DNA of 64,000 bases, taken from contig CAVSTP010000002.1 in the NCBI GenBank assembly GCA_963730935.1, forward strand, positions 704,001 through 768,000. The letters run 5' to 3'. Shown piece after piece: positions 23,902 through 33,397 of the stretch (position 1 is its first letter; every line of letters begins with the position of its first letter). The DNA comes from an uncultured Nitrospiraceae bacterium (GTDB lineage: Bacteria; Nitrospirota; Nitrospiria; Nitrospirales; Nitrospiraceae). The position numbers and the translations under genes were made by a program. The notes under the pieces were generated by a model. The model did no database searches and was not told the origin of the DNA. It saw only the letters and a program-made list of their open reading frames with translations.

Positions 23902-24171
23902 TTATAGCTCGCGGATGGCGCCCTGGAGGACCGTAATTTGCGTCACCGGGTCTCCCGAACTCTTCAACTCTTTGCGGATCTGATCCTTCAGGTAGGACGA
24001 GTAGCCGACACGATCGATCAGAAGATCAAGGAACCGCTCGGCTGGAAGCAGACTCTGCGCTTTGAGATCTTCAATGGTTTCGTCGCTGACGGGCACATAG
24101 GTGCCACCGAGATGGAACACCACATTGTAGTAGCGTCCCTGACCGATGCGTTCGAACCGAAGCCCCTTCAC
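23902..24171 (-). CDS. Small hypothetical protein (about 89 aa)
   Basis: GTG 24171 behind AAGAGG; protein-like composition; co-oriented with the dab operon. Confidence 0.65.
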   Translation of the reverse strand: MKGLRFERIGQGRYYNVVFHLGGTYVPVSDETIEDLKAQSLLPAERFLDLLIDRVGYSSYLKDQIRKELKSSGDPVTQITVLQGAIREL

Positions 24172-24256
24172 AACAGTACCTCTTGAGCCAACGCCAAGCC
24201 GCCCATTGTAGACAACTTCCTGTCGTGATGACAAGGGCAACGGCGCTGCGCCAGGG

Positions 24257-27863: not shown

Positions 27864-29158
27864 GTCAGCGATTCCTTCACCGAGGTCTGAGAGCGCGTCT
27901 GATCAGTCCCGAAGAGCGTCGTCGGCGCCAGGCCCAACGCCAGGAGGACCAGGACGGCCATTACAAGCGACGCCAATTCCGTCGTGAGCAGATCCGTGTA
28001 GCGCAGATCCTGCCGTTGAGTACCGAACAACAGACGCTGGACCATCTGCATGATGTACCAAGACGAAGTGAGCCAGGCGAGCAGTGTAATGAAGAGGCCG
28101 AGGGTCGAGGGAAAGGGCGAACTCAGCAGCAACCCCATGAATCCGGCAAAGACGCCGAATGGAGGAAGCCCCATCGCGGCCAACGCCAATAATGAGAGCA
28201 GCACGGCGTATTGCGGCATGCCGGATGCCAACCCGCTGACGGCCTGCGGATCGATGTCGTCTCCATATCTGGTGCGAACGACCTGCCATGCAATCAAGAG
28301 TCCGCTCGTTGCGAGGCCGACTGTTCCAACCATTAGGGCCGCACGGGGTGTCGCGGTTCGCGTCGCGGCCACGAACCACCAGAGCATCGAAAAGAACGAA
28401 AGGCTGCCATACGCGAGCAAAAGCCGCACGCGAGACTGTGCCAGTGCCTTGATCGCGCCGTAGAGAGCTCCCAGCAAGGCGAAGAAGGTCACGGTCCAGG
28501 CGACGGTGTCCGGAACCGTCTGAAGAACGCTTGGAAGCCCGTGGAGGCCCGCGATGGGAAGCAGAACCACGATGAATGCCGGCAAGCTGCCGGGCAACCG
28601 TGTCAATGCCGTGAGGTGGCCATCGTGAAAGGGCATGAGAGGCAGGAGCACCGCGCAGGCGACCAGAGATGCCACGGAAGACACAGGTGGACCTACGCCG
28701 ACCGTCAACAAGGCGCAGAAGGCACCGAGGCCGTACGTCCCGATCCCCCACCAAGACATAGGCCAGAGGGCGCTGTGATGGCGGTAGAGCAGAATCGCGA
28801 GGATGACCAGCAGCACCGCCAAGGCGAGGCTGCCAACCACCGGCTGGCTCGTGAGGACGGACAAACCCAGGCCGAGAAGCACCAAGGTCAGGGTGCAGGA
28901 CTGCCGATAATCATCATGGGCCGGCTGTGCGAGAAGGGAGATTACAGCCGTCAGCGGGAGTAGATACAGCGGCAGTAACCCTTCCGGCGGCATCGCGAGG
29001 TAACCGGCGAAGCCAATGAGCGATCCGAAACTGATGGCGGACCAGAGGAGGGAGGAGAGTTTTAGATGGTCGGCATTCGACCAGAAGAACAGGTTCACGA
29101 GAGCTCCCAATAAGGGAGTCCCGGCCAAGAGCCACGAGAGGAGTGCGCCGTCCATCAT
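27851..29158 (-). CDS. NuoM/MrpD-like antiporter-fold membrane protein in the DAB operon
   Basis: Highly hydrophobic; LPLMPFH, LYGAIKALAQ, LLAYGSLS, GLASGMP, AMGLPPFG; translationally coupled on both sides. Confidence 0.8.
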   Translation of the reverse strand: MMDGALLSWLLAGTPLLGALVNLFFWSNADHLKLSSLLWSAISFGSLIGFAGYLAMPPEGLLPLYLLPLTAVISLLAQPAHDDYRQSCTLTLVLLGLGLSVLTSQPVVGSLALAVLLVILAILLYRHHSALWPMSWWGIGTYGLGAFCALLTVGVGPPVSSVASLVACAVLLPLMPFHDGHLTALTRLPGSLPAFIVVLLPIAGLHGLPSVLQTVPDTVAWTVTFFALLGALYGAIKALAQSRVRLLLAYGSLSFFSMLWWFVAATRTATPRAALMVGTVGLATSGLLIAWQVVRTRYGDDIDPQAVSGLASGMPQYAVLLSLLALAAMGLPPFGVFAGFMGLLLSSPFPSTLGLFITLLAWLTSSWYIMQMVQRLLFGTQRQDLRYTDLLTTELASLVMAVLVLLALGLAPTTLFGTDQTRSQTSVKESLTWNR

Positions 29159-30855
29159 CGCGACCAACCCCGTTCTCGTTTATCGAATTGGTGGACCCAC
29201 CGCATGATGGTGTCCCCCAGTAGCTGGTGGAGTTCGTCGGCATACAGGCGGTTCATGAAGGGCAAATAGAGTCGTATCCGCAAGGCGTCGATCCATGCTG
29301 GCATCCGGACGGTCCGGCCGTGGGCAGTCAGATAGAGGTAGGACCAGCTGGCGACCATGAGGATCGTGGCGGCGAGGATGATGAGATCGAAGAGCCAGTC
29401 GGGAAGGTCGGCGGCTTTAAAGTAGGAGGCGACCTCCTCCGGATCGGGATAGAGAAAGGCCGTGAAGGATTCGACGGCGAATAGATAGACGAAGACGATA
29501 AACAGCAAGGTCACCAACATCGCGGCCGAGACCTTCCAGGAGGCAACCTGCCGCAGCCTCGTCAATGTCAAGATGGCCTGTGACGAGGTAATCCAAATGA
29601 AGAAGAGAAAGATGACGGTCCCTTGCGACTCGAGCAATGGAATGCGCAGCACTCCGTGCGTCAATAGGAGAATGAACAGGGGGATCAGGAGCGTCGTGAC
29701 GGATCCGGTGATCCACGTCAGGCGGGACAAGCCCTCTTCATCTGTCTGATGGTCCGCATGAGGGAAATGTGGCTCCTGCCGGGCCTTGTGAATGACATTA
29801 CCGCAATTCAAGAACACCGTGGCCTTGAACAATCCATGCGCGATCAGATGAAACACCGCCAGTGAGAAGGCGCCCAGGCCACACTCCATGATCATATAGC
29901 CCATCTGACCGATCGTCGAGAATCCCAGAGTCTTCTTGATGTCGTTTTGTGCCAACATCATCGTCGCACCGAGGATGGCGGTCAGCGTTCCAATCACAAA
30001 AGCCACGTGCAGCGTCGCCGAACTCAGAGCGAACAGCGGAGCCAGCCGATTAATCAAGAATCCTCCGGCGTTGATGATGCCCGCGTGCAGGAGCGCGTGG
30101 ACGGGGGTCGGAGCGAAGAGCGAGCCGGGCAGCCAGAGATGGATCGGGAACTGCGCCGACTTTCCCATCGCTCCGATGAAAAAAAGGATTGTCACGGCGG
30201 TGACTCCGCTGACCTCCATGCCGAACCCGAGCGGCAAGCTAATCGGTGTTTCGGCCGCTCGAACGAACAGTTCTTGGAATTCAAGCGTCCCATAGAGCTG
30301 ATAGGCGAGCGCAATGCCGGCGAGAAACGCCGTATCCGCCACGCGCAGCAGCGTAAAGGTTTTGAACGCACCGGCCAGCGTTCCGGCGTGAGCATGATTG
30401 TGCGCGAGTACGTAGAGTAGATAGCTGAGGACCTGCCAGAAAAGAAATAGCATCATGAGATTGGAGCTGGAGACCATGCAGACCAGGACAAAATCTGTGA
30501 GGCAGATCATCGCCAGATACCGGCGGGCGTGGTGGTCTTGATACATGTAGCCGATCGAGTACTTGTAAATGATGACGCTGACGGCGGTGATCAGGGTCAT
30601 CATGACCGCGCTCAGCCGATCGACATGAAACCCAATCGGAATGGCGAAGGACCCGATGGAGGAAAGATCGTAAAACCGCAACGAAACGGGACCTTCGGTC
30701 GTGACCTGGTATAGCGTCGCGACGGCTCCCAAACAGGCGGCGCCAACGAGATAGGCGGCCATTCGCGCGCGCGCCTGGCGCGACCTGTTCGAGCCGATCA
30801 GCACCAGTGCGGCGGCGGCGAGCAGGAGCAGGGGGACCAACAGCGTAAACGTCAT
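29155..30855 (-). CDS. dabB: DabB/MpsA (NuoL-like) membrane subunit, copy 2
   Basis: VDRLSAVM, GKSAQFPIHLWLP, APTPVHALLHAG, STIGQMGYM, FHLIAHGLFKA; GAGGT RBS before ATG 30855. Confidence 0.88.
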   Translation of the reverse strand: MTFTLLVPLLLLAAAALVLIGSNRSRQARARMAAYLVGAACLGAVATLYQVTTEGPVSLRFYDLSSIGSFAIPIGFHVDRLSAVMMTLITAVSVIIYKYSIGYMYQDHHARRYLAMICLTDFVLVCMVSSSNLMMLFLFWQVLSYLLYVLAHNHAHAGTLAGAFKTFTLLRVADTAFLAGIALAYQLYGTLEFQELFVRAAETPISLPLGFGMEVSGVTAVTILFFIGAMGKSAQFPIHLWLPGSLFAPTPVHALLHAGIINAGGFLINRLAPLFALSSATLHVAFVIGTLTAILGATMMLAQNDIKKTLGFSTIGQMGYMIMECGLGAFSLAVFHLIAHGLFKATVFLNCGNVIHKARQEPHFPHADHQTDEEGLSRLTWITGSVTTLLIPLFILLLTHGVLRIPLLESQGTVIFLFFIWITSSQAILTLTRLRQVASWKVSAAMLVTLLFIVFVYLFAVESFTAFLYPDPEEVASYFKAADLPDWLFDLIILAATILMVASWSYLYLTAHGRTVRMPAWIDALRIRLYLPFMNRLYADELHQLLGDTIMRWVHQFDKRERGWSR

Positions 30856-30984
30856 GAACACCTCATTGCTATCGTGCAACGGTCCATGCGTCGCGCCCTC
30901 GGGAACCTGGAAATGCTGAGAGACACTCAAGCCGGCGGGCTACCATTAATACGGTGTCCTGACGTTCGTCAAGCACGGCGGTCC

Positions 30985-32682
30985 TCACACCCGTTCCTCC
31001 GCTCGCTTCTCAAGGCGTTGGAAGACAGACAGGCGGGTTTGCTCCAGGCGCTGGAACCCTTCATCAACATAGAGACGGTTCAAAAACAGCACATAGAGCT
31101 TGATGCGGATGCTCTCGATCCAGGCCGGCACCAGCAGTGACCGGCCATGGGCCTTCATATAGACATAGCACCAGCCGAGGATGATGACGAGCGTCGCCGC
31201 CCCGATCATCATGTCGAAGAGCCGGTTGGGCAGCTCCGCCGCCTTAAAGTATGAGGCGACATCCTCTTCGTTGGGATACAGGAAGGCGGTGAACGACTCA
31301 ACGGCGAACAGATATACGAAGACGACGAACAAGAGCGTCAGTAGCATGGCGGACGACACTTTCCACGAAGCCACGGCGCGCAAATGCGTCAACGTGAGGA
31401 TGGCTTGCGACGAGGTGACCCAGATGAAAAAGAGGAAGATCACGGTGCCTTGCGCTTCGAGCAGAGGAATATCCAGGATGCCGTGCGTGACCAACAAGAT
31501 CAGCAGAGGGATCATGAGCGTAGTAACAAATCCGGTGAACCACGTCAGCGGCGAGTAGCCCTCCTCGCCCGTGTCATGGGCAATATGGGGGAAATGCGGT
31601 TCCTGTCGCGCTCTGCCGATGACGTTGCCGCAGTTCAAGAACACGGTGGCCTTGAACAATCCATGCGCAATCAAATGAAACACGGCCAAAGAAAAAGCGC
31701 CCAAGCCGCATTCCATGACCATGTAGCCCATCTGGCCGATGGTCGAAAAGCCGAGCATGTTTTTGATGTCGTTCTGCGCCAGCATCATGGAGGCACCGAG
31801 TACCGCGGTCAGTGTGCCGATGAGAAATGCGATGTGCAGCGTCGTCGAGCTGAGGCCGAACAGCGGCGCGAGCCGGTTGATGAGAAAGCCTCCGGCGTTG
31901 ATGATGCCGGCGTGCAAGAGCGCTGTCACGGGGGTCGGAGCATACAGATAGCGCGGAAGCCAGATGTGAAAAGGAAACTGTGCGGACTTGCTCATGCCGC
32001 CGATCAGAAGAAGCAACGTGACGGCCGTGGCGCCATTGAAGTCGATGCCGGGTAGAAGCGCAACACTGGCCGTCGATCGGGCGGCAGCGGTGAAGATGTC
32101 AGGAAATTCCAACGTGCCATACAGTGAGTAAGCCAATGCGATAGCGGCGAGAAAGGCGACGTCACCAACACGCAAGATGGTGAACGTGCGGAAAGCACCT
32201 TCAAGGGTCCCGGCATGGCCATGGTTGTGGATCAGAATATAGAGCAGATAACCCAGGATCTGCCAGAAGACGAACAGCATCATGAGATTTCCGCTTGAGA
32301 CCATGCAGAGCAGGACGCAGATCGCAACGCCGATCGTGCTGAAATACCGGCGCTCATGAGGCTCCTGATACATGTAATTGAGCGAGTAGGTGTAGATGAT
32401 GGTTCCGATGGCGGAAATCAACACCATCATGACGGCGCTAAGACGATCGATATAGAAGCTGATCGGTAGCGGAAGTATGTTCGCATCAGCGGGATCGTAC
32501 AATCGGACCGAAATCGGTCCGCTCGTTGCGACCACGTAGAGAGTCCAGATGGCGCCGAAGAAGGCAGCGCCGAGCGGCCAGGCGCCCATTTTCATTCGCT
32601 CGCGTCTGCTAGCCTCACGGCCGGCAAGGACGATGAGGACCGTCAAGAGAGGAAGCAGCGGGACAAGCAGAGCGGCGGTCAT
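30985..32682 (-). CDS. dabB: DabB/MpsA (NuoL-like) membrane subunit, copy 1
   Basis: IDRLSAVM, SKSAQFPFHIWLP, APTPVTALLHAG, FHLIAHGLFKA; GAGG RBS before ATG 32682. Confidence 0.88.
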   Translation of the reverse strand: MTAALLVPLLPLLTVLIVLAGREASRRERMKMGAWPLGAAFFGAIWTLYVVATSGPISVRLYDPADANILPLPISFYIDRLSAVMMVLISAIGTIIYTYSLNYMYQEPHERRYFSTIGVAICVLLCMVSSGNLMMLFVFWQILGYLLYILIHNHGHAGTLEGAFRTFTILRVGDVAFLAAIALAYSLYGTLEFPDIFTAAARSTASVALLPGIDFNGATAVTLLLLIGGMSKSAQFPFHIWLPRYLYAPTPVTALLHAGIINAGGFLINRLAPLFGLSSTTLHIAFLIGTLTAVLGASMMLAQNDIKNMLGFSTIGQMGYMVMECGLGAFSLAVFHLIAHGLFKATVFLNCGNVIGRARQEPHFPHIAHDTGEEGYSPLTWFTGFVTTLMIPLLILLVTHGILDIPLLEAQGTVIFLFFIWVTSSQAILTLTHLRAVASWKVSSAMLLTLLFVVFVYLFAVESFTAFLYPNEEDVASYFKAAELPNRLFDMMIGAATLVIILGWCYVYMKAHGRSLLVPAWIESIRIKLYVLFLNRLYVDEGFQRLEQTRLSVFQRLEKRAEERV

Positions 32683-32706
32683 CAGCGCCTCATGTCTCCA
32701 TGAAAC

Positions 32707-32756
32707 AAAAAAAGCCAATCGATCCATCGACAGAGTCGATGGGACTCGGTTGGCTT
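32707..32756 (-). terminator. Intrinsic terminator/attenuator in the dab operon leader
   Basis: Minus strand AAGCCAA-C-CGA-GTC-CCATCGAC-TCT-GTCGATGG-A-TCG-A-TTGGCTT with a U7 tract, ending about 25 nt upstream of the dabB start. Confidence 0.8.
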
Positions 32757-32884
32757 GTACTGCGGCAGGCCGTCAGGCGAACAGCCGGCCACCCTACGGC
32801 CTAGAGGAGAAATCCGGCGTCCCGTTTGTCCGATACAACCACTGGAAAAACAGCAGCGCCGTCCGATCCTGGACGGCCTCATAG

Positions 32885-32911
32885 ATAATATGATGGCGCG
32901 AACGACGTCAA
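32885..32911 (-). promoter_or_regulatory. Putative dab operon promoter
   Basis: TTGACG (32911-32906) and TATTAT (32890-32885); the 15-bp spacer is short. Confidence 0.4.
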
Positions 32912-33003
32912 TATCGGAGTCGGCCTCAGGCCTCAATACCGCTGCCGGATAGCACGAAAGGCCCACAGCAGACCGAATGGTGAGACAAAGGGCTCACGGC
33001 ATC

Positions 33004-33033
33004 TTGTTCGAAACTCTCTTGCAACTCTATAAT
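33004..33033 (+). promoter_or_regulatory. Promoter for mpsC-CA-selO
   Basis: Perfect TATAAT at 33028-33033 with TTGTTC 18 bp upstream. Confidence 0.55.
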
Positions 33034-33052
33034 CCGCGCGAAAGGTCCAACC

Positions 33053-33397
33053 GTGGAAACAGCGATTCGCAACGCCATCATCAAGTTCGAACAGGAATTC
33101 ATGGGCAGGGGACCGGACGATGTCCGGGCCTCTATCGTCCGTGATCTGGTCGTGGTCCGGCTCAAGGGCGTCCTGACACCTGCCGAACGGCAGTTGGCAA
33201 AAACTGCGGAAGGTGTCGACATGGTGAAGCGACTGCGGCAGAATTTGATTGCGCAGGGGCGTGACAAGCTCTGCGAGCAGGTAAGCGAGATTACGCGAGC
33301 CAAGGTCTTGGGCGTCTTCACCGACATCGATGTCCAGCTGGGCGAGCGCGTGTTCGTGTTCACGATGGACCGAGAACTGCAGAACGGCGGACGGTAA
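33053..33397 (+). CDS. DUF2294 / MpsC family protein
   Basis: KFEQEFMGRGP, VVRLKGVLTPAERQL, TDIDVQLGERVFVFT; a family commonly linked to DUF2309 loci. Confidence 0.88.
   Translation: METAIRNAIIKFEQEFMGRGPDDVRASIVRDLVVVRLKGVLTPAERQLAKTAEGVDMVKRLRQNLIAQGRDKLCEQVSEITRAKVLGVFTDIDVQLGERVFVFTMDRELQNGGR

Follow-up and report, generated by a model that had tools for sequence, protein, structure and literature searches.

The window, a stretch of 64,000 nucleotides from an uncultured Nitrospiraceae bacterium, carries on its minus strand a dab operon with the gene order dabB-dabB-NuoM-like gene-dabA-PII. The first copy of dabB, which opens the operon, spans positions 30985 to 32682 (Pfam PF00361 and PF00662) and is preceded by a probable ribosome binding site, GAGG, read from the sequence at 32688 to 32691 on the same strand and similar in relatives; genes further downstream match PF10070 (DabA) and PF00543 (PII). 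Divergent from dab, mpsC (DUF2294; 33053 to 33397, plus strand; PF10057, E 1.5e-34) is the first gene before those for a beta-carbonic anhydrase and selO. These matches confirm the first-pass annotation, which had called DabB and DabA in the operon and MpsC on the opposite strand. The genome contains a single mpsC and a single dabA. In this arrangement mpsC does not itself lie under the terminator of the dab leader and is a candidate regulator of the operon. The genome is Nitrospira-like: its 71 related loci, taken from the best 80 of 589 relatives, belong almost without exception to Nitrospira or Nitrospiraceae records.

Some features of the locus vary among relatives. Two tandem full-length dabB-like genes, with a NuoM-like third membrane subunit, occupy positions 29155 to 32682; many relatives have a single dabB, and some two-dabB loci have a second promoter-like box between the copies. 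A minus-strand open reading frame of 112 residues located 3' of the PII gene (23902 to 24240) has no Pfam match and recurs in a relative, L230, where the dab genes are deleted. In several Nitrospira (L007, L009) a gene for an NhaD-like transporter is inserted between mpsC and the dab promoter.

The dab promoter is marked by a -35 box, TTGACG, at 32906 to 32911 on the minus strand and a probable -10 box at 32882 to 32887, separated by an 18-nt spacer. TTGAC is at least 90% conserved in 36 aligned leaders, while A32886 and T32885 are invariant in 36 leaders. Spacers of 17 and 18 nt dominate in this genome (180 and 119 sites, versus 28 to 45 for other spacers), and promoter spacing would place the dab transcription start near 32875. 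On the plus strand, a probable mpsC promoter (TTGTTC, 18 nt, TATAAT) can be read at 33004 to 33033; 36 of 44 loci have a TATAAT-like box no more than 110 nt from the start of mpsC. Two short direct-repeat boxes (minus strand, 32957 to 32993) precede the -35 box of dab, GCCCTTT at 32993-32987 and GGCCTTT at 32963-32957. Raw counts show their positions to be kept: 28 of 30 leaders have a box at -51 to -53, and 19 of 30 have one at -79 to -85. Lying about 30 nt apart between the divergent promoters, these boxes are a candidate transcription-factor site.

The leader ends in an intrinsic terminator (32707 to 32756, minus strand), with the stem at 32756-32712 and a tract of seven U residues at 32713-32707. 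Its stability is far beyond chance (z -6.0; 0 of 200 shuffles). The dabB ATG at 32682 lies 24 nt past the U-tract, against about 25 nt in the earlier estimate, and the earlier argument that this terminator has no upstream gene to end holds, for no gene of that strand stops between mpsC and the leader. A covarying terminator hairpin, whose existence had been proposed as a check, was found across Nitrospira: in 46 leaders the nine basal pairs are 99% paired and four of them show two-sided changes. Just these nine pairs are kept. The upper terminator and its internal loop vary freely in length and sequence among relatives, which removes the loop from the functional parts to which the first-pass annotation had assigned it. 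In another genome (G098; L226, 4420-4520), the element ahead of dabB stands in tandem with a further hairpin-terminator of a different kind, which comes after it.

The same annotation had placed two further hairpins in the leader. All three stems can indeed be drawn where they had been described, and only the terminator exceeds chance. Hairpin 1 (32877-32858) scores z -1.9, with 7 of 200 shuffles as stable, and a fold of -10 kcal/mol or better occurs at its place in 2 of 40 leaders. Hairpin 2 (about 32802-32767) scores z -0.7 (44 of 200 shuffles); 66.7% of its cells are paired, a level equalled in 127 of 500 shuffles. Such rare recurrence and shuffle-level pairing rule out both as conserved folds, hairpin 2 being a possible alternative fold only in the terminated state of this genome.

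Instead of these, comparison of relatives revealed a conserved hairpin at 32752 to 32801 (minus strand) that shares the left arm of the terminator. The alignment comprised the window and 45 of the 48 loci in which the core of this hairpin was recognized (best 80 of 589 relatives), after removal of a truncated copy and two near-duplicates. From the bottom up, the hairpin consists of a three-pair basal helix (32801-32799 with 32754-32752), an AA bulge (32756-32755), a GUA/UAC helix (GUA/URC in relatives), a 2x2 GG/AG loop (32794-32793/32761-32760) and an upper stem with a variable loop. The core, GUA-GG-G / C-AG-URC, is invariant; bases invariant in the aligned leaders are GUAGGG, AGU, C and GCC, together with the UGGC of the terminator. 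The hairpin is the minimum-energy fold of its stretch alone, and 95.3% of its cells are paired. Of the 15 pairs, 6 show two-sided changes, and none of 500 shuffles comes up to this, although related sequences can exceed such shuffles even without structure; slid controls drop to 20-49%. Further upstream, a hairpin at 32815 to 32861 (minus strand) is kept in structure and variable in sequence: each of its six consensus pairs shows 4 to 9 two-sided changes in 36 sequences (z -2.6 alone). By eye, it is missing in some copies of the element before mnhE.

Because the basal helix uses the GCC at 32754-32752, which the terminator also needs, the two folds are mutually exclusive. Among 46 sequences, 44, 45 and 44 keep the first, second and third basal pair, with no two-sided change at any of them; since this helix never covaries, its support comes from two conserved G bases that the terminator fold does not use. 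Thus, a terminator lies between the probable promoter and start and the first gene, and is preceded by a hairpin that excludes it, as indicated by conservation without two-sided covariation in the shared helix. The leader appears to have the anatomy of an ON-type attenuator, in which the conserved hairpin, as antiterminator, would take the left arm of the terminator. Under equilibrium folding, the terminator fold of the window is the more stable (-81.9 versus -76.1 kcal/mol for the antiterminator fold), and the same preference holds in 46 of 46 leaders, by 3.0 to 13.3 kcal/mol (mean 7.7). Since the terminator fold wins unaided in every leader, the antiterminator would need a stabilizing partner. 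A ribosome-mediated attenuator was rejected as unlikely, for no leader peptide is conserved among the 46 loci: just 18 of them have an open frame that runs across the leader, and core lengths fall in all three frames.

Among the best 80 of 589 relatives, the core precedes the first dabB in 48 of the 69 loci with a usable dabB start, and mpsC lies within the fetched flank in 43 of those 48. The other 21 loci are second-type dab operons, intra-operon spacers, short flanks or one degenerate copy (L003). A model of this form, R1, finds one copy in the present genome and no further ones. In a sample of the phylum, the order is represented by two families; R1 matches 17 of 21 genomes in one and 8 of 10 in the other, and 0 of 119 genomes outside the order. 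Within the order, the RNA was detected in 105 of 151 genomes, before dabB, dabA, sulP or mnhE at the loci inspected. The association with DUF2294 that had been put forward as a check is borne out: among these 151 genomes, which cover kin and are not independent, 95 have both RNA and MpsC and 36 have neither, with 10 carrying the RNA only and 10 MpsC only (MpsC counted at E 1e-22, which excludes distant paralogues).

In the sister family the element forms up to three copies per genome. The 11 regions fetched contain 18 matches that score above 25 bits, located before sulP (6), dabA (5), mnhE (5) and dabB (2); by eye, one of the five copies before dabA is a truncated remnant, and a U-tailed hairpin follows 17 of the 18. 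The mnhE targets belong to an Mrp-type operon. At several loci of this family (L082-L087), dabA has no adjacent dabB and is followed by a gene for a DegP-like protease and a multi-subunit Mrp-type operon. Because each unit carries its own leader copy, this layout suggests that DabA of the sister family uses an Mrp-like membrane arm.

The genomes in which RNA and MpsC part company were inspected individually. Among the ten with RNA only, three matches lie on short or ending contigs. One genome without mpsC (G123) has a decayed hairpin and no terminator; three others (G262, G320, G420) have damaged hairpins, the terminator being kept in G320 and G420. The remaining three, G086, G147 and G400, are single-contig genomes with no MpsC match and with a near-intact hairpin and terminator. 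Of the ten with MpsC only, five have a weak copy (20-25 bits) at the expected place and one (G368) has a degenerate copy, recognized by eye. In G141, mpsC carries two stops and leaders are absent; G120 and G184 lack the adjoining operon; in G094, mpsC lies beside sbtA with a promoter present and the leader absent. G141 and G123 look like cases of co-decay of mpsC and leader, which we count in favor of a role for MpsC.

Second-type dab operons without mpsC also lack the element, and a terminator-like site occurs in 1 of 12 of them versus 40 of 47 leaders with the motif. A GG-N10-GC box resembling the sigma54 signal is found in 10 of 12 second-type loci (L059-L071) versus 3 of 47 motif leaders; it sits about 50-90 nt before dabB in these operons that have neither mpsC nor leader. 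A pattern scan of metagenomes yielded at least 120 stretches, 80 of which were examined. Seven were strong, and since all seven had mpsC and were of the Nitrospira type, they add no new phylum for this form. Viral contigs gave 105 pattern matches, none of them with mpsC or a dab gene in the DNA fetched for it; a single mpsC was found on a viral contig, without the element.

Inspection by eye of other Nitrospirota identified a longer hairpin beside mpsC that is composed of the same parts: a GG, a bulge, a helix that starts with AU, a 2x2 loop of purines with A-U and G-C as its closing pairs, and ARGCC leading into a terminator. A pattern for this second form gave 22 matches in 19 of 401 genomes, as compared to 11 for the reversed control. 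The 11 well-folded matches all adjoin mpsC and precede dabB (7), sbtA or PII-sbtA (2), mpsC (1) or a contig end (1); the form covaries at 9 of 17 pairs. A model built from these 11 sequences, R2, finds the RNA outside the order in 6 of 8 genomes bearing MpsC, three of the six being training genomes, and in 0 of 111 without MpsC. The three new matches are weak (24-27 bits) and precede a gene for monomeric isocitrate dehydrogenase, identified by Pfam in one genome and by a similar N terminus in the other two. One family has DabA in all of its 20 genomes, yet just two of them carry MpsC, and these two are also the ones with the RNA.

The second form may extend beyond the phylum. An element between mpsC and an MFS gene in Acetoanaerobium, first spotted by eye and held out from training, scores 22.1 bits and is the only R2 match in a 2.6-Mb record. 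The mpsC-sbtA spacer of Anoxybacillus has the same anatomy (z -4.8), and R2 does not find it in register. R1 has no match to the second form or to the Bacillota loci, and R2 has none in the window. Because the two models miss each other's sequences, kinship of the forms rests on anatomy and position: their common parts and their place before orthologous dab operons suggest that they belong to one family. One staphylococcal mpsA leader, from S. pettenkoferi, matches neither model.

Other DUF2294 genes have different surroundings. A divergent subgroup lies beside formate dehydrogenase genes (fdhF, fdhD) in four Bacillota records (L096-L099), where no leader match was found (L099 was searched with R1 and the pattern only). 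In Anoxybacillus, a second long structured leader upstream of mpsC (L093, 6815-6935) is, by eye, unlike R1 or R2. In Nitrospirota without DAB (L222, L223, L224, L225, L227), the neighbors of mpsC are all linked to CO2 use, namely purE, carbonic anhydrase, or isocitrate dehydrogenase and ATP-citrate lyase.

The element matched none of the classes with which it was compared. The Rfam search suggested by the first-pass annotation gave (Rfam 15) no match at the gathering score in the window and none at E 10 in 32600-33100; in nine related loci the only matches were two chance ones, located elsewhere. A close RNA-only parallel is the Na+-I (DUF1646) riboswitch, an ON switch in which the aptamer stem excludes a terminator and transporter genes lie downstream; its two stems stand in tandem with a linker between them, and bases of the P2 loop are conserved (PMC9337991). 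The dab element resembles it in that a conserved stem excludes the terminator ahead of transporter genes, but differs in being one nested hairpin with a variable terminal loop. This difference, and the lack of any match to RF03071 in the genome at E 10 (control genomes do match), rule out Na+-I.

Protein-dependent systems offer other parallels. In the BglG/LicT-RAT systems of sugar PTS operons, an imperfect hairpin with internal loops overlaps through its 3' strand the left arm of an intrinsic terminator, the regulator gene is next to its target and termination is the default. The dab leader shares the single imperfect hairpin, the overlap, the adjoining candidate regulator and a predicted default of termination; unlike BglG/LicT, its targets are carbon-uptake genes, and MpsC has no CAT_RBD domain. 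A BglG/SacY system is ruled out by the absence of a CAT_RBD protein (PF03123) from this 99.9% complete genome, in a search whose controls matched in 4 of 14. HutP, a small protein that depends on a ligand and has its gene next to a leader terminator, binds single-stranded UAG repeats. The likeness lies in the small protein encoded beside the terminator, and the difference in the conserved UAG of the dab leader, which is mostly paired. HutP itself (PF09021) was not found in the genome, with control matches in B. subtilis. ANTAR RNAs consist of twin short hairpins with conserved small loops; terminal loops here are long and variable, and the one ANTAR protein is encoded elsewhere in the genome, so this system was rejected as well. 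By analogy, the element might work like RAT-type protein antitermination or like an ON ion riboswitch, outside the classes tested.

The pump and its companion gene also have relatives in Bacillota. Like the Nitrospira locus, S. aureus mpsABC and B. subtilis ndhF-ybcC-ybcI combine a DAB-type pump with a DUF2294 gene. In S. aureus, mpsA is down-regulated in 5% CO2, and a delta-mpsC mutant grows normally in air while a delta-mpsA mutant does not (PMC6689103). There, unlike in Nitrospira, mpsC lies downstream of the pump genes, and its loss has no effect on growth. A staphylococcal screen (PMC2790875) lists RsaX05 as a predicted "cis-acting leader of ndhF?". Full-text literature searches retrieved no description of the RNA element, which may nonetheless be listed in supplementary motif catalogues; the main texts of three such catalogues and one supplement contain none of its terms.

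To our knowledge, DUF2294 has no settled function; a full-text search on that name returned nothing relevant to function, and literature searches found no description of MpsC as a regulator. The protein has 114 residues, and its predicted model is confident (pLDDT 92.8), with the topology alpha-beta-beta-alpha-alpha-beta-beta. No solved relative was found by sequence, and the model has no Foldseek match at E 0.001 and no match in the Atlas. In a wide structural search no match exceeded a Z of 7.4. RbfA, at 5.2, and Era, at 4.8, of which we take the matched parts to be type II KH domains, fall in the noise range of common arrangements. HutP is not among the structural matches listed, a listing that does not exclude a HutP fold. 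Charge is unremarkable (19 K+R, 17 D+E), and several arginines and lysines are invariant. The model shows no clear RNA-binding fold.

We favor the view that the leader is an attenuator subject to MpsC-dependent antitermination tuned by inorganic carbon, to which we give a probability of roughly 0.55 on the strength of the comparative evidence. RNA polymerase would start near 32875 and make the upstream hairpin, the conserved hairpin and the terminator in turn. By default the terminator fold would win and transcription stop near 32707. When inorganic carbon is scarce, MpsC would bind the hairpin through the AA bulge, the GUA/UAC helix and the purine 2x2 loop and hold the basal helix, so that the terminator could not close and the DAB pump would be transcribed; with plentiful carbon, MpsC would release the hairpin, restoring the stop near 32707. 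This reading agrees with the drop of mpsA in 5% CO2 in S. aureus and with the absence of CAT_RBD and HutP proteins from the genome. With less support, the signal that MpsC senses might be CO2, bicarbonate or something that stands in for them, such as pH, and the carbonic anhydrase encoded with it might assist. The antitermination scheme of the first-pass annotation is supported by the conserved promoter ahead of the leader terminator, the exclusive antiterminator, the lack of an Rfam class and the tie to MpsC and to inorganic-carbon genes, and loses hairpins 1 and 2 and the internal loop as working parts. The main points against activation by MpsC are the near-intact copies in G086, G147 and G400, where an obligatory activator would leave the genes off, and the normal growth of S. 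aureus delta-mpsC (PMC6689103). The basal helix without two-sided covariation, G094 without a leader, the unmatched staphylococcal mpsA leader, the two models that miss each other's form and the unclear fold and unremarkable charge of MpsC count further against it. A broader version, in which DUF2294 would be a new family of RNA-binding antiterminators that sense CO2 or bicarbonate directly and control, with the hairpin, a cross-phylum regulon (DAB, SbtA, SulP, carboxylating enzymes), is held only tentatively and seems to us rather less probable than not.

The same leader could do without a protein if the hairpin itself bound bicarbonate or CO2, Na+ or protons as an ON riboswitch, MpsC being just a fellow member of the module. 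Ion riboswitches typically combine invariant bases in loop and bulge with a terminator that overlaps them (Na+-I mechanism, PMC9337991); the element also stands before an Mrp-type operon and near NhaD-like and LysR genes, and the extra upstream hairpin could be part of an aptamer. The near-intact copies in MpsC-less G086, G147 and G400 fit as well. We consider this explanation unlikely nonetheless, given that an ON switch for uptake genes would need a scarcity signal rather than bicarbonate itself, that the RNA tracks MpsC and not DAB (2 of 20 versus 20 of 20 genomes in one family; 6 of 8 versus 0 of 111 outside the order), that Nitrospira mpsC is adjacent to the controlled transcript yet outside it, and that a single hairpin has no second conserved loop to dock.

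MpsC might, on the other hand, act negatively, opening the basal helix and favoring termination when carbon is plentiful, or at another level, through the DNA repeats ahead of the promoter. The hairpin, forming first, would then let polymerase through by default, in keeping with the genomes that keep the element without MpsC, with the normal growth of S. aureus delta-mpsC and with the drop of mpsA in 5% CO2 (PMC6689103); the boxes upstream of the -35 are conserved in position. Such action is improbable, in that each of the 46 leaders favors the terminator over the three-pair basal helix, though in equilibrium folding, and that the boxes were seen in one promoter type only while the link to MpsC holds for both RNA forms. 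Finally, a leaky, unregulated terminator or a stabilizing 5' structure could simply set the level of dab mRNA, with mpsC nearby by inherited synteny. Most Nitrospira loci are one orthologous locus, so that co-occurrence there is partly due to descent, and assembled contigs from RNA libraries (four runs), which show neither starts, ends nor strand and may derive from DNA, cross the terminator. From a passive terminator one would expect neither invariant unpaired bases nor copies before four gene types nor the same layout beside mpsC in a clostridium; we regard it as very improbable.

Altogether, the locus contributes a revised fold, a regulon with several copies, counts of how RNA and MpsC occur together, exceptions included, and a putative kinship of the two forms. 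The tuning of carbon pumps to CO2 outside cyanobacteria is a largely open question on which the element bears, and with an RNA of 50 nt and a protein of 114 residues it is open to a simple read-through assay. If the RNA alone responds, it would be a new riboswitch class; if CO2 or bicarbonate is sensed directly, carbon would be sensed at transcription termination, of which the literature searches found no description. The hosts, Nitrospira, are major CO2-fixing nitrifiers, and in Staphylococcus and Bacillus, too, the Mps/DAB pump comes with DUF2294. In the present Nitrospira-like bacterium, the MpsC-linked hairpin points to a candidate, previously undescribed on/off switch for inorganic-carbon uptake.
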